Shown: positions 28,161-56,125, counted from the first letter of the stretch. The stretch is DNA of 64,000 nucleotides from an uncultured Nitrospiraceae bacterium (GCA_963846575.1 CAWJWJ010000002.1:1248001-1312000), one strand, 5' to 3'. Translations and numbers: made by a program. The notes: generated by a model not told the origin, from the letters alone.

Positions 28161-28490
28161 TTATTTACAGGCTTTCCCGTCGAAAATCAGGCAGGTGGAT
28201 TCTCCGGACTTGACCTTCCAGCTTTTCAGTAACGGGGGCTGGCCCTCGCGGGTTTCGACCACAATGTCCACCAGCCCGGATTGCGGCAATTTGTCCATAT
28301 GGGGTCGACCTGCTTCGGGTATTTCTACCCAAAACACCGCCCCGAGAGTCGAAATCAGAATGCGGCTGTTTTCGACGTCTACATTGATAATCGGACTGTA
28401 GTAGCTCTTCTCCGCGGCGGATGCGTTTCCGGAAAGCGTCATACAGCCAAGGAACAGAATGAGTGCGAAGCGCAAGAGGATAAGCCGCAT
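28161..28490 (-). CDS. Secreted hypothetical protein
   Basis: Signal peptide ending ASA; C-terminal Cys pair. Confidence 0.7.
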   Translation of the reverse strand: MRLILLRFALILFLGCMTLSGNASAAEKSYYSPIINVDVENSRILISTLGAVFWVEIPEAGRPHMDKLPQSGLVDIVVETREGQPPLLKSWKVKSGESTCLIFDGKACK

Positions 28491-28591: not shown

Positions 28592-29104
28592 TCAGACAAT
28601 ATGGACGTCGGCGGGGCGAACCTTACCGCCGGTAATCCAATAGGTACGAATATCTGCCGCGGGGGCATGCATGAGCGAGACGAGGAGGTAGGCAGGGACA
28701 GGCAAGTTGATTCGCTGCCAGATCTCCTCATAGTCGGTGGCGATCTTGATGTCCGTGTGGGAAGGTCGGGCCGGGTCCTTGGGATGGGAATGGTACACCA
28801 CCTGAAGGTCGAGACCCTGCTTACGGATGTCCTTCTTGGCCGCTGAAAAGTCCTGCATGTCCATCACAAAGGCGATTTCGGCCCGTTCCTCCGGTGACAG
28901 TCGTTCGAGGTGGGCGACTTTATCATCGTCGAAGGTGGACAGCTTTTCTGCTCCTTCGAGGGCCACGATATTCGTGATGCGGTAGAGATGTGTCACCGCC
29001 TTGTTCGTGCCGGCGAGCAGCCCGCAGCATTCGAATGGAGCCAGTTCCCTGGCGTGGGCGACGATTTGGTCCAGTATGTGCTGCGGGATCGAAAGGTCTG
29101 GCAT
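28592..29104 (-). CDS. JAMM/Mov34 metallopeptidase (Mec-like carrier-processing enzyme)
   Basis: PFECCGLL and YHSHPKDPARPSHTD (E...HxH-x7-S-x2-D). Confidence 0.92.
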   Translation of the reverse strand: MPDLSIPQHILDQIVAHARELAPFECCGLLAGTNKAVTHLYRITNIVALEGAEKLSTFDDDKVAHLERLSPEERAEIAFVMDMQDFSAAKKDIRKQGLDLQVVYHSHPKDPARPSHTDIKIATDYEEIWQRINLPVPAYLLVSLMHAPAADIRTYWITGGKVRPADVHIV

Positions 29105-29105
29105 G

Positions 29106-29909
29106 TCAGATGGTGCAGGCGACGCTGTAATCCCCGCCCAGGTCTTTGATGGTCGGGGTAGCGCTGCACAGGGGGCAGCGCGGGTCTTTCGGTCGTGAGA
29201 CTTTGCGGAATTTCATCTCCAACGCGTCGTAAATCACGAGCTTATCTGCCAGAGTTTCGCCGATGCCGAGGATTTCCTTGATCGCTTCCGAGGCCTGCAG
29301 CACGCCCATGGTTCCGGCCAACACTCCCAGAACACCGGCTTCCTGACAATTCGGGACCAGTCCTGCCGGCGGTGGCTCCGGATAGAGGCATCGGTAGCAG
29401 GGATGACCGGCATGCGGCTTGATGGTCGTGAGTTGTCCTTCGAAGCGAAACATACTTGCCGAGATCAGTGTTTTCCTCGCGAAAAAGCAGGCATCGTTGA
29501 CCAAAAATCTGGTGGTGAAATTGTCAGACCCATCCAGCACGATATCGTAGTCTTTCAACAGCTCCAGAATGTTCGCAGTGTCGACATTCAGTTGATAGGT
29601 CTTGATCATGATATCGGGGTTGATGGCCGATAGCATCCGTTGACCGGATTCCACCTTGGGAAGGCCGACGGTCGCAGTGGTATGCAGAATCTGCCGCTGG
29701 AGATTCGATAAGTCCACCACATCGCCATCTACCAGGCCGATGGTGCCGATGCCGGCCGCGGCTAGATAGAGAGCTGCGGGTGACCCGAGACCACCGGCGC
29801 CGATGAGCAGGACTTTAGCTTTGGAAAGTTTGACCTGTCCCTTGCCGCCGACTTCATTGAGAATGATATGCCGGCTGTAACGCTGAATCTGTTGTTCGGT
29901 GAATTCCAT
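29106..29909 (-). CDS. moeB: MoeB/ThiF-family E1-like adenylyltransferase, copy 2, no rhodanese domain
   Basis: RYSRH, GAGGLG, SNLQRQ, CYRC, CQEAG, CPLC. Confidence 0.93.
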   Translation of the reverse strand: MEFTEQQIQRYSRHIILNEVGGKGQVKLSKAKVLLIGAGGLGSPAALYLAAAGIGTIGLVDGDVVDLSNLQRQILHTTATVGLPKVESGQRMLSAINPDIMIKTYQLNVDTANILELLKDYDIVLDGSDNFTTRFLVNDACFFARKTLISASMFRFEGQLTTIKPHAGHPCYRCLYPEPPPAGLVPNCQEAGVLGVLAGTMGVLQASEAIKEILGIGETLADKLVIYDALEMKFRKVSRPKDPRCPLCSATPTIKDLGGDYSVACTI

Positions 29910-29993
29910 GCGACCTATCTCTCGTCCTGCGTGAAACGTGACGTTCGTCGGTTTACCTGGGAAGAAGGGTCGCGCGACCCGTTGCGTCTAGTC

Positions 29994-30233
29994 CTATTCG
30001 ACCACGTTCAATTCAATCGGATCGACGACGCAGCCCTTGATTCGGATTCCATCGATGGCGCGTTCAATTTCTTCTGTCTCGCCGGTGAGTTCCAAATCCA
30101 TCCAACCGGTCGTCTCCCGCACATCTGCACGGCGCACGTTTGTGACGACCTTGAATTCATGTCCGATTTGATAAATGATCGGCTCCTTGATCTTGTTCTC
30201 GGGAAAACGAATGTGAAAGCGTAGACTGGTCAT
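29994..30233 (-). CDS. Stand-alone NIL-domain protein
   Basis: FP...EPIIYQI..F.V.TNVRRADV...GWM.LEL.G pattern; 79 aa. Confidence 0.8.
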   Translation of the reverse strand: MTSLRFHIRFPENKIKEPIIYQIGHEFKVVTNVRRADVRETTGWMDLELTGETEEIERAIDGIRIKGCVVDPIELNVVE

Positions 30234-30235
30234 GG

Positions 30236-30508
30236 CTATCCTCCGGCGATCGCAGGAACAATGGACACTTCATCGCCGTCCTTCAGGGAGGTCTCTTTTC
30301 CGTTGAGGAATCGGATGTCTTCCTCATTGACGTAAATGTTGACGAAACGCCGCAGGTCACCCTTGTCGTCGCACAGACGATTCTTCAAGCCGGGATAGGC
30401 GGCATCAAGCGAACCGATCATATCGACAATATTGGCTGCTGCGGATTCAACTTCTCCCTGGCCTTTCGTCAGCGGCCGCAAGGGAGTCGGAATACGAACC
30501 TTGATCAT
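30236..30508 (-). CDS. MoaD/CysO-like ubiquitin-fold sulfur carrier with free C-terminal GG
   Basis: VRIPTPLR, FVNIYVNEEDIRFL, PAIAGG-stop; ATGA overlap with the upstream PLP enzyme. Confidence 0.93.
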   Translation of the reverse strand: MIKVRIPTPLRPLTKGQGEVESAAANIVDMIGSLDAAYPGLKNRLCDDKGDLRRFVNIYVNEEDIRFLNGKETSLKDGDEVSIVPAIAGG

Positions 30509-31755
30509 GAGTCACCACCACCGTTCTTTCCCATTTTGAATGTTTTCTGGAAACTGACCAGGCTGGGCTGGATGCGGAACGGACGCCCCACGGCATCCAC
30601 GACCGCTTCCTGGGTCTTGAGCCCGTTTCCAGTAATATAGGCGACGGTCACGTCGCTCTTCTTGATCAGCCCCTGTTTCACGAGTTTGCAGAGCACACCG
30701 ATGGTCACACCGCCTGCCGTCTCGGCAAAAATACCTTCAGTCTGAGCCAGCAGTTTAATGCCTTCGACCACCTCCTCATCGCTCACGGCGTCCATCGCGC
30801 CTTTGCTCTCTGCCGTGGCTTTCAACGCATAGTACCCGTCTGCCGGGTTGCCGATGGCGAGCGACTTGGCGATGGTCTTCGGCTTGACCGGTTTGAAGAA
30901 GTCCCGTCCCGCCTTAAACGCGGTGGCAATCGGGGAGCAACCTTCGGCCTGCGCGCCATTGATCTTAGTCCGAACCTCATCGACCAATCCGAGCGCGTGC
31001 ATTTCGTGCAATCCCTTCCAGATCTTTGTCAGCAGCGAGCCGGAGGCCATGGGAATCACTGCTTGATCTGGGGTGCGCCATCCGAGTTGTTCGACAGTCT
31101 CAAAGGCCAGGGTCTTGGAGCCTTCGGCATAGTAGGGTCGAATGTTGATGTTGACGAATGCCCACCCGTGTTCACCGGCGATTTCGCTGCAGAGCCGGTT
31201 CACGTCGTCGTAATTACCCTCGACCTCCACCACATTCGGCTTATAAATCAGATTGCCGAGGACCTTCGCCGCTTCGAGGTCGGCCGGGATAAACACATAA
31301 CACTTCATTCCCGCTGCCGCCGCATGCGCTGCCACGGAATTGGCGAGATTGCCGGTTGACGCACAAGCCACCGTCTCGAATCCGAGTTCGCGCGCGCGGG
31401 TCAGGGCCACCGAGACGACCCGATCTTTGAACGACAGGGTCGGATGGTTGACCGTATCGTTCTTGATATACAGCTCATCCAACCCCAGGTAGGCGGCCAG
31501 GTTCTTTGCCCGCACCAGCGGCGTCAACCCTGCATGGGGTCCGATAAACGAGGTGCTCTCCACCGGCAGCAAGTCGACATAGCGCCACATGCTCTGGGGA
31601 CCCTGTTCGATCTTTTTCCGCGAGATCGTGCGTTTGATCTCGTCGTAGTTGTATTTCACTTCGAGCGGGCCGAAGCACATCTCACAGACATGGATGGCTT
31701 TGGGAGGATATTCCTTCCCGCATTCCCGGCACACGAGCGCTTTCATTTTTGCCAT
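30505..31755 (-). CDS. Threonine-synthase-like PLP enzyme with N-terminal Zn ribbon; possible O-phosphohomoserine sulfhydrylase
   Basis: CREC..CEMC, PTLSFKDR (PLP Lys), ASTGNLA, EGSKT, TGNGLK. Confidence 0.85.
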   Translation of the reverse strand: MAKMKALVCRECGKEYPPKAIHVCEMCFGPLEVKYNYDEIKRTISRKKIEQGPQSMWRYVDLLPVESTSFIGPHAGLTPLVRAKNLAAYLGLDELYIKNDTVNHPTLSFKDRVVSVALTRARELGFETVACASTGNLANSVAAHAAAAGMKCYVFIPADLEAAKVLGNLIYKPNVVEVEGNYDDVNRLCSEIAGEHGWAFVNINIRPYYAEGSKTLAFETVEQLGWRTPDQAVIPMASGSLLTKIWKGLHEMHALGLVDEVRTKINGAQAEGCSPIATAFKAGRDFFKPVKPKTIAKSLAIGNPADGYYALKATAESKGAMDAVSDEEVVEGIKLLAQTEGIFAETAGGVTIGVLCKLVKQGLIKKSDVTVAYITGNGLKTQEAVVDAVGRPFRIQPSLVSFQKTFKMGKNGGGDS

Positions 31756-31768
31756 GGAGACACCTTCG

Positions 31769-32593
31769 CTACAAGTTACGTTGACCCGGAAGCGCACAGG
31801 TCGGCCCGACGTCGCCGTCTTCAAACAGCTCGGTAATCGTGGGCCGCTCACCGCACAGCGGACACTCGGGGTTCCGCTTGATGCGGATTTCTCTGAACTG
31901 CGTACGTCGCGCATCGAAGTCGAGGAGGCGATCGGTCAGCGGACGGCCGATGCCGAGGATCAATTTGAGCGCCTCGGTGGCCTGGATCGTTCCGATGATT
32001 CCTGCCAGCACGCCAATCACGCCCGCTTCCTGACAGGACGCCACCAGGCCCTCGGGCGGCGGCTTTTTGAAGACGCAACGATAACAAGCGGACTTTTTGG
32101 GAATAATCGTAGTCACACGGCCGTCGAATCGAAGGATGCCTCCGTGGACAAGCGGCTTTCCTGCAAAAAAACAGGCATCGTTGATGAGAAACTTCGTCGG
32201 AAAGTTATCGACGCCGTCGAGCACCACATCGTACTCGCCGATTATCTTCAGGGCATTACCGGCCGTGAGACGTTCCTCATGCATCACTACGCTCACGTCA
32301 GGATTCAGGGCCTGAATTTTCTCTTTGCCGGACAAGACCTTGGAACGTCCCACATCGGAGGTGTGATGAATGACTTGCCGCTGCAGATTGCTCAGGTCAA
32401 CCACATCGCTATCGATCAGTCCGATGGTGCCGATTCCGGCGGCCGCCAGATACAGCGCGGCGGGCGAACCAAGACCGCCGGCCCCGACGACGAGCACCCT
32501 CGCCTGGATAATCTTCTTTTGTCCTTTTCCGCCGACTTCGGGAAGAAGGATATGCCGGCTATACCGGTTGATCTGTGTTTCAGTGAATTCCAT
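31769..32593 (-). CDS. moeB: MoeB/ThiF-family E1-like adenylyltransferase, copy 1, no rhodanese domain
   Basis: MEFTETQINRYSRH, GAGGLG, SNLQRQ, CYRC, CQEAG, CPLC. Confidence 0.93.
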   Translation of the reverse strand: MEFTETQINRYSRHILLPEVGGKGQKKIIQARVLVVGAGGLGSPAALYLAAAGIGTIGLIDSDVVDLSNLQRQVIHHTSDVGRSKVLSGKEKIQALNPDVSVVMHEERLTAGNALKIIGEYDVVLDGVDNFPTKFLINDACFFAGKPLVHGGILRFDGRVTTIIPKKSACYRCVFKKPPPEGLVASCQEAGVIGVLAGIIGTIQATEALKLILGIGRPLTDRLLDFDARRTQFREIRIKRNPECPLCGERPTITELFEDGDVGPTCALPGQRNL

Positions 32594-32673
32594 GGCGGTT
32601 CTCGTCGCTCGTGAAAGGTGAAACCTTGAGGCTCTATCGCGAGATGGACTCCACGAGGCGCGGGTGACGCATC

Positions 32674-33603
32674 CTAAATGTTGAAATACTTCTCGATGCT
32701 GATATAGCGCTCCCCGGTATCGCACAGGATCGTCACGACGTTTTTCCCCGGGCCCAGTTCCTCGGCAATCTTTTGTGCCGCGAACACGTTGGCGCCTGCA
32801 GAAATGCCGACCAGGAGTCCCTCTTTTTTCGCAAGCAGTTTGGCGGTCTGGTAGGCTTCATCGTCGGTCACGGTTACCACGCGATCGAGCAATGTCCGGT
32901 TCAGGACCTTGGGGATGAAGCCGGCACCGATGCCCTGAATCTTGTGGGGCCCTGGATCTCCGCCGGATAACACCGGTGATCCTGCCGGTTCCACAGCAAT
33001 GATCTTGGCTGCCGGATTGCGTCCCCGGATGACCTCGCCGCAACCCGTAATCGTGCCGCCCGTTCCCACGGCTGCGACGAATGCATCAACCCGCCCATCG
33101 AGAGCTTCCACAATTTCTGGTCCCGTGGTTTTCCGATGCATGTCAGGATTGGCCGGATTCGAGAATTGGTCGGGCATATAGTAAGACGGGTTCTGCGCGA
33201 CGATACTCTCGGCTTCCTTGATCGATCCCTTCATGCCTTCCCACGCTGCTGTCAGTACCAGTTGTGCTCCATAGGAGGAGAGAAGACTGGCTCGCTCCAT
33301 ACTCATGCTTTCAGGCATGACCAGAATGAGTTTATACCCGCGCACTGCTGCCACTAGGGCCAAGCCGATGCCCGTATTGCCGCTGGTCGGTTCGACGATC
33401 GTTCCGCCGGGCTTCAGTTTGCCCAGCCGCTCCGCCTCGTCGATCATATTCAGGCAGATGCGATCCTTGATACTACCACCCGGATTGAACGATTCCACTT
33501 TGCCGTAAATCGTGGCCGAACCGGGTTTGCTCAGCCGGTTGAGACGGACCAGCGGGGTGCGCCCGATCAACTCGGTGATATCTGGGTGGGCCCTGAGGGT
33601 CAC
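32674..33603 (-). CDS. cysK: Cysteine synthase
   Basis: NPGGSIKDR, PTSGNTG, DQFSNPAN, GTGGT, HKIQGIGAG, DTGERY. Confidence 0.95.
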   Translation of the reverse strand: MTLRAHPDITELIGRTPLVRLNRLSKPGSATIYGKVESFNPGGSIKDRICLNMIDEAERLGKLKPGGTIVEPTSGNTGIGLALVAAVRGYKLILVMPESMSMERASLLSSYGAQLVLTAAWEGMKGSIKEAESIVAQNPSYYMPDQFSNPANPDMHRKTTGPEIVEALDGRVDAFVAAVGTGGTITGCGEVIRGRNPAAKIIAVEPAGSPVLSGGDPGPHKIQGIGAGFIPKVLNRTLLDRVVTVTDDEAYQTAKLLAKKEGLLVGISAGANVFAAQKIAEELGPGKNVVTILCDTGERYISIEKYFNI

Positions 33604-33800
33604 CGGCCACCGCCCATGTAGAAGAGAAATTCCACGTGATCGCCGTCTTTCAATTGGGTGGTCTCGAGATGTGTTCGCTCAAGCATGGTGTCATTGACCT
33701 CGACCGCCACCATTTGGGGTTCGATACTCTTGGCCTTCAAGAGATCCAGCACAGTCCCCCCTGCGATACTCTCAGACTTGCCGTTGATCATGACCTGCAT
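33600..33800 (-). CDS. ThiS-like sulfur carrier ending GGGR (masked di-Gly)
   Basis: MQVMINGK..VAVEVN..LKDGDHVEFLFYMGGGR-stop; GTGA overlap with cysK. Confidence 0.9.
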   Translation of the reverse strand: MQVMINGKSESIAGGTVLDLLKAKSIEPQMVAVEVNDTMLERTHLETTQLKDGDHVEFLFYMGGGR

Positions 33801-33840
33801 TATCCGCTCCTGGGAAGGTAAGAGTCTAAAGAATTTCAAC

Positions 33841-33992: not shown

Positions 33993-34370
33993 ATGTGGAA
34001 GAAAAATTTCTTATTTCGCGCGCATGAGGCGGCTCCGCTGAAAGAGTCGGAAAACGAACTTTTTCATGATGCAGAACCGGCCTTGGACAGTGCCGGGCTT
34101 CAAATGGAAAAGTTTCTCTCGGTCTGGGTGCAGGGTGAAGGTGAAGACGACAGCCCCACGATGTACACGAATCTGTATGTCAGAACGGCCACGTTGGATT
34201 TTCGAACACGCGCCGGCTTTCTCCAGCCTCTACAAGGCCGCACGCATCAGATTAAACAAATGCTGACGCCGGAGCAAAAAGGATTTTTGCGGGGCTGGTT
34301 GTCGAAAACTTCGCCCCAAGCCTGGGAAGAGTCTGACGACCATTTTCGAACGCTGTTCGATCTCGACTGA
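33993..34370 (+). CDS. Hypothetical protein
   Basis: GGAGG RBS, promoter, 125-aa ORF. Confidence 0.7.
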   Translation: MWKKNFLFRAHEAAPLKESENELFHDAEPALDSAGLQMEKFLSVWVQGEGEDDSPTMYTNLYVRTATLDFRTRAGFLQPLQGRTHQIKQMLTPEQKGFLRGWLSKTSPQAWEESDDHFRTLFDLD

Positions 34371-52441: not shown

Positions 52442-55400
52442 ATGCCGGAATCAGACATTCGTGATCTGCTGCGAGAGCGCATCCTGATTTTAGACGGTGC
52501 CATGGGCACGATGATTCAGCGGTACAAGCTGGATGAGGCCGCGTTCCGCGGGGAGCGGTTCAAAAATTGGGAGAAAGATCTCAAGGGCCACAACGATCTC
52601 TTGAACATCACCAGACCGGCCGTGATCGAAGAAATTCATCGACAGTACTTCGAGGCCGGAGCGGACATTGTCGAAACGAATACCTTTAACTCTCAGTCCG
52701 TGTCGTTGGCCGACTATGGCATGGATGACCTGGGGTACGAACTGTCCAAAGCCGGAGCCGAATGCGCCCGTCGCGCTATGCTGCAGGTTCTGGCGAAGCA
52801 GCCTGCGCGGCGGTGTTTTGTGGCAGGTGCGATCGGACCCACGACCAAAACCTCTTCGGTTTCGACGGATTCCAATGACGCGGCCGCGCGGGGTACTACC
52901 TATCCCGAACTGGTTCGCGCCTATGGCGATCAAGTGCGGGGCTTGTTGGATGGCGGTGTCGATTTGCTCCTGGTTGAGACCATCTTCGACACGTTGAACG
53001 CCAAGGCGGCGTTTTTTGCCATTCAGCAACTATTCGCCGAGGGCGCCCGGCAGGTGCCGATCATGGCGTCGGTCACCTTTATTCAGGCCGGCAGCAATCG
53101 CGGCTTTTCCGGGCAGACGGTCGAAGGCTTCTGGAACTCCATTTCGCATGTTCCGTTGCTCAGTGTGGGGATGAATTGCGCGCTCGGTCCGAAGGAGATG
53201 CGGCCGCTGATCGAGGAACTCTCTCAGATTGCGCCGACCTATGTGAGCAGCCACCCGAACGCCGGATTACCTAATCCCTTACTGCCGACGGGCTTTCCCG
53301 AAACTCCTGAATCGTTGGCGCCGCAGTTGCGGGACTGGGCTGAGAACGGCTGGTTGAACATCGTGGGCGGTTGCTGCGGGACGACGCCGGACCATATTCG
53401 GTCCATTGCCGAGGCCGTGCGTGGTCTGTCTCCACGGCAGGCCGGCAAGGTCGAGCCGTTCCTACGGTTGAGCGGCCTTGAAGCATTGACCGTCCGGCCC
53501 GAGTCGAACTTCGTCAACATCGGCGAACGGACGAATATTACCGGGTCACCCGCCTTTTCCAAGCTCATCCTCGCCGGCGATTATGACAAGGCCCTGACGG
53601 TGGCACGCCAGCAGGCCGAAGGCGGCGCACAGATCATCGATATCAACATGGATGAGGGACTTCTGGATTCCAAGGCAGCCATGGAGAAGTTTTTGCGGCT
53701 CCTCGCGGCTGAATCCGACGTTGCCCGCGTGCCGATCATGGTGGATAGCTCGAAATGGGAGGTCCTCGAAACGGGCCTCCAGAACATACAGGGCAAGGGG
53801 ATCGTCAACTCGATCAGTTTGAAGGAAGGCGAAGCCAAGTTCCTCGAACAGGCGCGCCTCGTTCGCCGCTATGGGGCGGCCATGGTGGTCATGGCATTCG
53901 ATGAGCGCGGACAGGCTGATTCCGTGGCTCGCCGCATCGAAATCTGTGAACGCTCTTATCGACTGCTCACGGAGCAAGTCGGCGTCCCGCCCCAGGATAT
54001 TATTTTCGACCCCAATATCCTCACCGTGGCCACGGGACTTGATGAGCACAATAACTATGCGGTCGACTTCATCGAAGCGACCAGATGGATCAAGCAGCAC
54101 CTGCCGCTCGCCAAGGTCAGCGGAGGGGTCAGCAATATCTCTTTCTCGTTCCGGGGCAACAACGTGGTGCGGGAGGCCATGCATGCGGCCTTTCTCTACC
54201 ATGCCATTCAGGCGGGGCTCGACATGGGTATCGTCAATGCCGGGCAGCTCGCCGTCTACGAGGAAATTCCGAAGGATCTGCTGGCGCTGGTAGAGGATGT
54301 GTTGCTGAACCGTCGTCCTGATGCCACCGAACGATTGGTCACCTTTGCCGAAACCGTCAAGCAGAAGGGGAAGGCGGCCGTCAAAGACGATGAATGGCGC
54401 GCCGGAACCGTTGAAGAGCGGTTGGCGCATGCGCTGGTGAAGGGGCTGACCGACTACATCGATCAGGACGTGGAAGAGGCCCGACAGAAAACGACGCGGC
54501 CGCTCGATGTCATTGAAGGGCCCTTGATGGCGGGCATGAATATCGTCGGTGACTTGTTCGGATCGGGGAAAATGTTTCTGCCCCAGGTCGTCAAGAGCGC
54601 CCGGGTGATGAAGAAGGCTGTGGCCTACCTGATGCCGTTCATGGAGGCGGAGAAGCAACGCTTGGGCACGTCACGCGCGAACGGGAAGGTGCTGCTCGCC
54701 ACGGTCAAGGGTGATGTCCATGATATCGGGAAGAACATCGTGGGCGTGGTGCTGGGGTGCAACAATTACGACGTGATTGACCTTGGCGTCATGGTGTCAT
54801 GTGAAAAAATTCTCGCGACGGCCCGCGAGCAGCAGGTCGATATTGTGGGGTTGAGCGGCCTCATTACTCCCTCGCTGGACGAAATGGTCCATGTGGCGAA
54901 GGAGATGACGCGGCAGGGGTTCGAGCTTCCACTCTTGATAGGCGGCGCGACGACCAGCAAGGCGCACACCGCGGTCAAGATTGCCCCTTCCTATCGCCAT
55001 GCGACCGTGCATGTACTGGATGCGTCTCGCGCCGTCGGCGTCGTCGGAAGCCTGATCAATGAACAGCAACGGGAAAGCTTCGCCGAAACCATCCGGGCCG
55101 ATTACGATCGGGTTAGGCAGGCGCACCAGGACCGGGGCCCGAAAAGCCTCCGCAGCCTTCAGGAGGCGCGCAAGCACCGGCTCTCCAGCGACTGGGCGAC
55201 GACCGATATTCCTACGCCTTCCTTTACAGGCCTGCGTAACATTGATGGGCTCCCGCTGCGGGAACTGGTGCCCTACATCGATTGGTCACCCTTCTTTCAC
55301 ACCTGGGAGTTACGGGGACGGTACCCCGGCATTTTCGACGACGCCACGGTGGGCCCAAAGGCGAAGGAACTCTTCGCGGATGCGCAGGCCCTGCTGGAGG

Positions 55401-56125
55401 AGATCATCGGCGGCAACCTGTTGACTGCCCGCGGGGTGTATGGCTTCTTTCCGGCCAATAGCGTGGGCGACGACATTGAAGTGTACAGCGACCCGGAACG
55501 CCGTGAGGTCCGGACCCTGTTCCATACGCTGCGCCAGCAGATGGAGAAGCCGGCGGATCAGTGGAATCTGGCCCTGGCGGACTATCTCGCGCCGAAAGAG
55601 TCGGGACGGGCGGACTACGTGGGGGCGTTTGCAGTCACGGCCGGCATCGGGGCGGGAGCGCTCTGCGCCAAGTACGAGCAAGATCACGACGACTACAACT
55701 CCATCATGGTCAAGGCGCTGGCCGATCGGCTGGCGGAAGCCTTTGCCGAATGGCTGCACAAACGAGTCCGCGGGGAGTGGGGCTATGGGCAGACGGAGAC
55801 ACTCACCCACGAGGAGCTGATCCGCGAGCGATACCGGGGTATCCGTCCCGCTCCCGGTTATCCCGCCTGTCCGGATCATACCGAGAAACGGACGTTGTTC
55901 GACCTGCTCGGTGCGGAGGCCAGGTGCGGAGTGACCTTGACGGAATCCTTCGCGATGTTGCCGGCGGCATCCGTGAGCGGACTCTATTTCGCGCATCCGC
56001 AGGCCAAGTATTTTGCCGTGGGAAAGATCAATCGCGACCAGGTCGAGGACTATGCAGCCCGGAAAAAAATGCCACTCCCCGAGGTCGAGCGGTGGCTGTC
56101 GCCTAACCTGAACTATGATACCTAG
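52442..56125 (+). CDS. metH: Cobalamin-dependent methionine synthase
   Basis: [44 protein letters not shown]. Confidence 0.98.

Follow-up and report, generated by a model that had tools for sequence, protein, structure and literature searches.

What is made by an operon in which two ubiquitin-like sulfur carriers each overlap a different pyridoxal phosphate (PLP) enzyme? The question is posed by a 64,000-nucleotide stretch of DNA from an uncultured Nitrospiraceae bacterium (GCA_963846575.1, CAWJWJ010000002.1:1248001-1312000), the whole of which we call the window. At 28592..33800 of this 64-kb window, eight minus-strand open reading frames (ORFs) run in the order ThiS-like-CysK-E1a-ThrC-like-MoaD-like-NIL-E1b-JAMM. 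We propose that the operon probably acts as a protein-thiocarboxylate sulfur hub, in which homocysteine would be built on the MoaD/CysO-type carrier and cysteine on the ThiS-type carrier, in parallel channels. The chemistry of the homocysteine half is already known, and the role of its NIL protein is predicted. From the 5' end of the operon, the genes are:

33600-33800 (-): ThiS-fold sulfur carrier, 66 residues, C-terminus FYMGGG-R with a one-residue cap (TIGR01683/PF02597)
32674-33603 (-): CysK-type cysteine synthase, 309 residues, GTG start (TIGR01139, motifs, tail and clade)
31769-32593 (-): E1a, MoeB/ThiF-family adenylyltransferase without a rhodanese domain (PF00899 alone, motifs)
30505-31755 (-): ThrC-like PLP enzyme, likely MetM homocysteine synthase, 416 residues (TIGR00260)
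30236-30508 (-): CysO/MoaD-type carrier, likely MetO, 90 residues, ending AIAGG with a free GG (TIGR01687)
29994-30233 (-): stand-alone NIL-domain protein, 79 residues (PF09383)
29106-29909 (-): E1b, second MoeB/ThiF-family adenylyltransferase without a rhodanese domain (PF00899)
28592-29104 (-): JAMM metalloprotease, Mec/HcyD-like, with intact motif (PF14464, Prok-JAB)

The operon is genuine and conserved across Nitrospira-type bacteria, beyond chance, because the complete set of eight, in the same order, recurs in 62 of 80 related GTDB loci (58 directly, 2 after correction and 2 in which one gene is split). The remaining loci either have no adjacent JAMM (2/80) or are short and miss one end (16/80). 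Weighing against a generous reading of such numbers, genome counts reflect kin rather than independent events. Twenty same-order loci comprise 15 with eight separate genes, 3 with in-frame ThiS-CysK fusions and 2 that are cut short. An apparent swap of CysK and ThiS in loci L106 and L112 is an artefact, and an 809-residue E1b ORF in L040 crosses a run of N. A previous reading of the window from its sequence alone (hereafter the sequence-only reading) had described this single-strand gene order, with each carrier overlapping a different PLP enzyme by 4 bp. ORFs, family matches and gaps (-4, 80, 13, -4, 2, 84 and 1 bp, 5' to 3') bear out the order, and the overlaps are present in both pairs (ThiS-like/CysK and ThrC-like/MoaD-like); exact spacings vary among relatives, and family f3 shows gaps of 0 bp and of 6-7 bp.

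The homocysteine half

The ThrC-like/MoaD-like pair very likely corresponds to MetM/MetO, which would make homocysteine from O-phosphohomoserine. The enzyme, labelled threonine synthase in protein databases, has an N-terminal CxxC..CxxC (residues 9, 12, 24 and 27) and its PLP lysine, Lys110, in SFKDR; a NinF Pfam match on residues 9-32 is explained by the CxxC motif. A separate short ThrC, 34% identical, is encoded in a hom-thrC-apgM-ask cluster of the same genome, where thrC adjoins hom and an apgM/HomK-like gene that scores above the cut-off of TIGR00306 and below that of TIGR02535. In a quick tree, 17 MoaD-linked ThrC-like proteins, the window's included, split from 6 short ThrCs with support 100. 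The MoaD-like carrier is found in 79 of the 80 loci, the exception being a 2-kb locus, and has CysO as its best solved relative (3dwg_C, E 1e-21). Its C-terminal GG is free in the window and capped in 36 of 79 orthologs.

The rest of the genome points the same way. It spans 4.2 Mb at 99.93% completeness, and each homocysteine-gene search found its target in control genomes. Profile searches of the host genome returned no MetA, MetX or DUF39 and no full-length MetB, MetC, MetY or MetZ (best match 37.6 bits over part of the model), which answers the metA/X/B/Y/Z check that the sequence-only reading had called for. MetH, the B12-dependent methionine synthase, is present, with metH at 52442-56125 (+) of the window, ~19 kb from the operon. 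Among 151 genomes of the phylum, 114 carry the ThrC-like gene; 82 of these 114 have neither a DUF39 nor a PF01053 enzyme, DUF39 occurs in none of them (0/114), and 35 of the 37 genomes without the ThrC-like gene carry a DUF39 or PF01053 enzyme. This complementarity is weakened by the 32/114 genomes in which a PF01053 enzyme stands beside a retained ThrC-like gene; losses of the ThrC-like gene fall mostly in two families and therefore represent few independent events.

The pair also occurs in other lineages, where all 11 loci have the ThrC-like, MoaD and NIL genes but lack both ThiS and CysK, and in 7 of them a short ThrC gene follows. In the loci scanned, hom, apgM-like and aspartate kinase genes were confirmed as neighbours of the ThrC-like genes, and metK-ahcY precedes ThrC-like genes in two loci. 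In Nonomuraea gerenzanensis, an S-adenosylmethionine (SAM) riboswitch is followed by a 52%-identical ThrC-like enzyme and then a 48%-identical carrier; in the quick tree this ThrC-like protein falls among the MoaD-linked proteins and not with short ThrC. Its replicon, NZ_LT559118.1 (11.85 Mb), is filed as a plasmid in PLSDB, and its size looks like that of a chromosome. A MetM/MetO thiocarboxylate route to homocysteine was reportedly described by Hasebe in 2024 in Streptomyces albulus. In supplement S1D of GapMind 2026 (PMC13759103), MetM/MetO/Mec/MoeZ is entered as a route that starts from O-phosphohomoserine and has experimental support, and MetM is described as frequently misannotated as threonine synthase; PMC12172450 implies that S. 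albulus metM has a SAM riboswitch. Orthology to S. albulus MetM (A0A059WBP2) and MetO (A0A059W7F4) was judged through Nonomuraea as a proxy, which counts against the identification. A homolog search with the window's ThrC-like protein gave close relatives alone; the 10 of 150 ThrC-like relatives that were looked up include one Micromonosporaceae homolog and none named Streptomyces.

These observations also bear on whether the genes simply do what their labels say, the ThrC-like protein being a second threonine synthase, the CysK an ordinary one, and the carriers and E1s belonging to thiamine and molybdopterin synthesis. Besides the database label, a cyanobacterial homolog speaks for this: PMC12172450 describes a Microcystis protein, 51.6% identical to MetM, that acted in vitro as threonine synthase and deaminase and gave no methionine rise in vivo, and both results weigh against MetM function here. 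We nevertheless hold the labels extremely unlikely to be the whole account, because a short ThrC is already present in the threonine operon, no other homocysteine route was found by the searches above, an ortholog lies behind a SAM riboswitch, the distribution across the phylum is complementary, and thiG and moaE each have a carrier of their own. The sequence-only reading had noted that the operon contains neither thiG nor moaE, as is indeed the case (both map to other loci of the genome, thiG next to one further carrier and moaE next to another), and had judged the thiamine and molybdenum cofactor (Moco) annotations probably wrong. That judgement holds for the carriers and fails for the E1s, which probably do serve thiamine and Moco, so that their moeB/thiF labels are probably right as a second job.

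The sequence-only reading had also left open whether the two channels are parallel or serial. In a serial relay, sulfur derived from CysK would charge ThiS and then MetO, and the whole operon would serve homocysteine. All parts for this lie in one operon, and a sulfur donor is needed as both E1s lack rhodanese domains. A relay of this kind is nonetheless very unlikely: ThiS and CysK are missing from all the other-lineage loci, the ThrC-like gene is present in 10/10 genomes of family f20 in which neither CysK nor CysE was found, and the window's CysK, as the sole CysK of the host genome, must supply the cell's cysteine. Parallel channels are thus favoured, because the homocysteine half exists without CysK. 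In two f20 loci (L152 and L153), the ThrC-like, MoaD and NIL genes adjoin thrC, and the locus has no E1 or JAMM.

The NIL gene accompanies the MetM/MetO pair in 20 of 20 phylum loci, and all seven solved relatives of its product are MetN or the C2 domain of MetN. The NIL domain in MetN binds methionine. On this likeness there is about an even chance that the stand-alone protein is a methionine sensor. Several distant ThrC-like relatives (P0333, P0339, P0361, P0340, P0370, P0376 and P0384) are fused to a LeuA allosteric or PadR-like domain.

The cysteine half

Gene context makes it reasonably probable that CysK uses the ThiS-like carrier as its sulfur donor, and amounts to strong guilt by association rather than proof of mechanism. 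The enzyme scores 452 bits against TIGR01139 (cut-off 351), falls below the cut-off of TIGR01138 (cysM), and has PLP Lys46, TSGNT at 73-77, GTGGT, GPHKIQGIGAGF at 218-229 and a clade-specific C-terminal tail, ERYISIEKYFNI. CysE is also encoded in the host genome, with a match above cut-off. Within Nitrospirota, CysK (137/151 genomes) and CysE (135/151) co-occur, down to the ten f20 genomes in which both were not found, and O-acetylserine is therefore the likely substrate of CysK. A role as phosphoserine sulfhydrylase was ruled out by this co-distribution and by the O-acetylserine sulfhydrylase A (OASS-A) motif QGIGAGF. By the features tested, this is not a CysM/CysO system. The C-terminus of the host CysE (L051:1348-2010, (-)) is DSDSSR and has no final Ile; the CysE matches of several further Nitrospirota families fall within reading frames of ~710-750 residues, probably fusions.

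Two lines of evidence tie this kind of CysK to the carrier: 1) a distinct C-terminal tail; and 2) recurrent gene fusion. Operon-linked CysKs end in S[IMLV]E[KQP]YF, as against STGLF-like ends in 17 unlinked CysKs of the phylum, and linked and unlinked enzymes fall on opposite sides of one branch (support 89) in a quick tree. The CysK trees use hand-picked or thinned rows, covering 17 of 99 linked and 31 of 65 fused CysKs, and the fusion tree was made with FastTree. A metagenome scan for the tail returned at least 118 stretches, with DNA for 80, of which 56 have at least 300 bases upstream. Among the matches listed, the ThiS-like gene is directly upstream of or fused to CysK in 53 of the 56 tail-type loci, and the carrier adjoins none of 17 canonical control CysKs.

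The second line comes from longer proteins with a carrier profile, which account for 118 matches among 7996 scored candidates. CysK is the partner in 70 of these fusions, followed by MetY-family enzymes (20), E1 (8), ThiG (5), sulfite reductase-TusA (1) and 14 others. Fifty-eight of the 64 ThiS-CysK fusions with a visible tail are of EKY/F type and none has the canonical S[TVM][GP]; two ThiS-CysK fusions look like frameshift artefacts. Starred branches of the FastTree tree force at least five fusion/fission changes. The GGG is kept in the linker of nearly all fusions, and in 66 of 67 complete ThiS-like orthologs the GGG is followed by a single, non-Gly final residue, the remaining one having a fourth Gly. 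With GGG kept in the linker and stand-alone carriers capped, a protease would be required in both forms. Polyprotein-like chains also occur, joining ThiS-E1-JAB (P0219), ThiS-Sir-TusA (P0169) or ThiS-MetY (P0201).

Several observations weigh against a carrier-dependent CysK and are what one would expect if MetM/MetO operates as proposed while CysK is an ordinary O-acetylserine sulfhydrylase (OASS) using free sulfide, with the ThiS-like protein a co-regulated sulfide catcher or shuttle. CysK scores above the TIGR01139 cut-off with every OASS-A motif intact, including QGIGAGF, which PMC12895370 ties to CysK and a narrow cleft. Among solved structures it is most similar to ordinary OASS enzymes (e.g. 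CysK1 2q3b, E 7e-102), CysM being absent among the best 60, and CysE is at hand in the genome. Tail-type CysKs without an upstream ThiS exist (3/56 among the matches listed, plus L163), and in two that lack an adjacent ThiS a CysH-like gene follows. The metagenome pattern itself was modelled on the Nitrospira motif and recovers chiefly close kin: among the matches listed, 41 of the 56 share 75% identity or more with the CysK of the window. Moreover, the carrier subfamily is also fused to E1 and sulfite reductase. Free-sulfide use is nevertheless unlikely in our judgement, given that CysK is by far the commonest fusion partner through repeated fusion and fission, that fused CysKs are of the EKY/F tail type and never canonical, and that the carrier is found near no canonical CysK.

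The capped carrier could instead be a ubiquitin-like modifier in the style of TtuB, or a regulator of CysK whose tail occupies the CysE-binding groove, and not a sulfur donor at all. CysE usually docks its C-terminal Ile into CysK, and the host CysE, as noted, has no such residue. An E1, a JAMM protein and a carrier suffice for conjugation in Thermus thermophilus, as described in PMC3980101. Yet fusions to MetY and sulfite reductase, both partners of a sulfur-donor system, also occur in this carrier subfamily, and the only targets seen are sulfur enzymes, which makes a modifier or regulator very unlikely.

Returning to CysK as a user of carrier-bound sulfur, structure prediction is neutral. 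A complex of CysK, trimmed ThiS carrier and PLP scored 0.02 (mark 0.32) and is not used as evidence either way; an AlphaFold2 model of CysK has a mean predicted local distance difference test (pLDDT) of 86.5, with residues 299-309 below 50 and the tail position unreadable. Of the two channels that the sequence-only reading had proposed, homocysteine is thus very likely and cysteine probable from gene context only. No paper on the operon or on a carrier-dependent CysK was found in a literature search that had most subscription journals outside its reach and in which "ThiS" also matches "this".

E1 enzymes, JAMM and sulfur supply

As the sequence-only reading had stated, the operon encodes two E1 paralogs, and these are 57% identical. 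E1a has Cys187, two CxxC and a C-terminal Cys266; E1b has Cys188, two CxxC and a C-terminal Cys265. Across ten families they form an E1a clade of 14 (support 100/99) and an E1b clade of 14 (99/94), with fixed differences at positions 134 (K/R), 150 (H/S), 152 (G or A/S), 169 and 175. Positions 150-154, which read HGGIL or SASMF, align with the ThiF/MoeB strand that lines the carrier tail. Judged from sequence, the clades and fixed differences fit specialisation, and a preference of E1a for ThiS and of E1b for MetO is possible, if tentative. Two points weigh against such sorting: a single E1 serves the two-carrier loci L164, L196 and L213, and single E1s mix both residue sets, being E1a-type in 2 of 8.

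The same enzymes probably work beyond the operon. Five ubiquitin-fold carriers are encoded in the genome: two in the operon, one before thiG, one in moaC-moaD-moaE and one before a TtuA-like gene. The operon E1s are the only two ThiF-family proteins, and the JAMM protein, with its active-site residues intact (Glu25, His105, His107, Ser115 and Asp118), is the only JAB match in the host genome other than RadC. For this reason the operon E1s and JAMM are, with high probability, shared with the thiamine, Moco and TtuB-like carriers, much as one E1, TtuC, is common to TtuB, MoaD and ThiS in T. thermophilus (PMC3980101). The thiamine ThiS before thiG (G000:C2:2364838-2365038, L055) is capped GGG-AG with no E1 or protease nearby, and would thus depend on the operon JAMM and E1s. 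The shared JAMM of the sequence-only reading therefore looks likely, whereas its dedicated E1s do not agree with two ThiF proteins for five carriers and with related loci that have one E1 for two carriers. In 41 relatives, ThiF matches number two in 27, three in 10 (the third being full-length in 3), one in 1 and none in 3; the 3 without ThiF are also without the ThrC-like gene, which suggests assembly gaps. The TtuB-like carrier ends VISGG and precedes a TtuA-like tRNA sulfurtransferase (L058:1441-2718) in what is presumably a mesophilic Nitrospira.

Since neither E1 has a rhodanese domain, sulfur would come from outside them. The donor is most likely sulfide from a TusA-bearing sulfite reductase, whose product may be channelled to the carriers. 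The host enzyme (825 residues; G000:C1:961959-964433, L187:3960-6434) combines a HEPN-like domain with a TusA domain at the C-terminus, and over 801 residues it shares 31% identity with a natural ThiS-Sir-TusA fusion. Downstream of its gene lie cysH and then glycosyltransferase-family-3-like and CysD-like genes. In divergent metagenome loci (L196, L203, L213, L263 and L264), the operon itself includes sulfite-reductase-like and TusA genes, which separate CysK from the ThrC-like gene or lie just upstream. Sir-TusA was found in 55 of 151 genomes, in seven families with linked CysK and in 2 of 38 genomes of f11. Counting against this donor, it was not found in the module-bearing families f7 (0/3), f12 (0/2) and f15 (0/7); the host genome also has 10 rhodanese matches.

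Together these parts suggest a cycle. JAMM would remove the Arg cap seen on ThiS-GGG-R, and the E1s, whose motifs are in place, would adenylate the carrier C-terminal Gly, which would then receive sulfur, most likely as sulfide from the sulfite reductase with its TusA domain. By orthology to MetM, the ThrC-like enzyme would join one carrier thiocarboxylate with O-phosphohomoserine; going by context, CysK would join ThiS-COSH with the aminoacrylate derived from O-acetylserine. By analogy, an S-to-N acyl shift followed by JAMM release would free the amino acid and recycle the carrier. NIL would probably exert methionine feedback on the homocysteine channel, and the same E1s and JAMM would likely also service thiamine ThiS, Moco MoaD and the TtuB-like carrier. 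A fuller proposal, in which a widespread CysK subfamily marked by the tail S[IMLV]E[KQP]YF uses a ThiS thiocarboxylate fed by Sir-TusA, the E1s sort five carriers and NIL is a subunit of MetM, is more tentative and falls somewhat short of an even chance. If it is true, cysteine and homocysteine synthesis in aerobic Nitrospirota would proceed with no release of sulfide, the E1 paralogs would sort five carriers by their tails, and NIL would be a methionine-sensing MetM subunit.

Relation to known systems and expression

By analogy, the system resembles MetM/MetO plus a capped carrier in the manner of Wolinella, paired with CysK instead of MetY. The Wolinella succinogenes system (HcyS/HcyD/HcyF/Sir/MetY), reportedly described by Krishnamoorthy and Begley in 2011, is said to combine a capped ThiS-type carrier, a JAMM protein and a rhodanese-less E1. 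All three features recur here, as do sulfite reductase as the likely sulfide source and a carrier subfamily that also fuses to MetY and Sir-TusA. Unlike in Wolinella, the PLP partner is CysK with O-acetylserine rather than MetY, and neither MetY nor MetX was found. MoeZ, the E1 named with MetM/MetO and CysO/CysM, carries a rhodanese domain. The S. albulus MetM/MetO/Mec/MoeZ system, as presented in PMC13759103 and PMC12172450, shares a ThrC-like enzyme followed by a MoaD/CysO-type carrier, a JAMM protein, an E1, a supply of O-phosphohomoserine, the lack of canonical met genes and the threonine synthase mislabel. It differs from the present system, in which one operon includes rhodanese-less E1s, NIL, and a second carrier with CysK, and no SAM riboswitch is found in the window.

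Carrier-dependent cysteine synthesis with a JAMM protein and an E1 is shared with Mycobacterium tuberculosis CysO/CysM/Mec/MoeZ as outlined in PMC11361707. In contrast to that system, the synthase here is CysK-type and likely supplied through CysE instead of using phosphoserine, CysK adjoins the ThiS-type carrier, and the CysO-like carrier adjoins the ThrC-like enzyme. Among the classes of Iyer, Burroughs and Aravind (2006; PMC1779556), class 4c likewise combines ThiS/MoaD, JAB, E1 and cysteine synthase, and class 4e, which the divergent loci match, a rhodanese-less E1 with SirA/TusA and sulfite reductase. None of the classes described there combines a pair of carriers and a pair of E1s with a threonine-synthase-like enzyme and NIL, and "threonine synthase" and "NIL" each count 0 in the full text. 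As with T. thermophilus TtuC (PMC3980101), few E1s serve many carriers, alongside thiS-thiG, moaD-moaE and a ttuB-ttuA-like pair; unlike there, two long-retained E1 paralogs, five carriers and an amino-acid operon are involved. The sequence-only reading knew of no characterised system with the full architecture; it named the single-carrier routes of Mycobacterium and Wolinella, and not MetM/MetO/Mec/MoeZ, under which the homocysteine half is published. The CysK-carrier half is uncharacterised, and its interest lies in the possibility that an ordinary-looking CysK is supplied with sulfur by a carrier protein, the known carrier-dependent cysteine synthase being CysM-type and using phosphoserine. 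The two E1 paralogs with fixed differences and the five carriers also form a compact system for carrier specificity.

In Nitrospira moscoviensis, NITMOv2_2396-2403 match the eight genes by order, label and mass (PMC8407350). All eight products are in the whole-cell proteome reported there (ranks 431, 274, 999, 318, 141, 213, 876 and 435), the short ThrC ranks 902, and reads per kilobase per million (RPKM) drop along the eight genes from 1208 to 65, as a single transcript would. The metabolic model of the same source, iNmo686, assigns no gene to the two cystathionine reactions by which it makes homocysteine and omits the locus tags of the operon's cysK and ThrC-like gene; its main text has no passage on the methionine gap, which is visible only in the model file. 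The operon is a candidate route for this gene-less homocysteine step, and the threonine synthase label would be corrected across the nitrifier phylum (114 of 151 genomes searched).

One regulatory feature was noted at the operon start:

33799..33828 (-): possible sigma-70-like promoter, TAGACT-18-GATAAT, weak

Its -10 hexamer overruns the proposed start codon, and the promoter scan was not above chance (5 sites versus 3.0 +/- 1.5 in shuffles). An Rfam scan of the window returned two tRNAs and no riboswitch. The flanking ORFs, at 33993-34370 (+) (125 residues) and 28161-28490 (-) (109 residues), have no Pfam or NCBIfam match, and the second likely carries a signal peptide.

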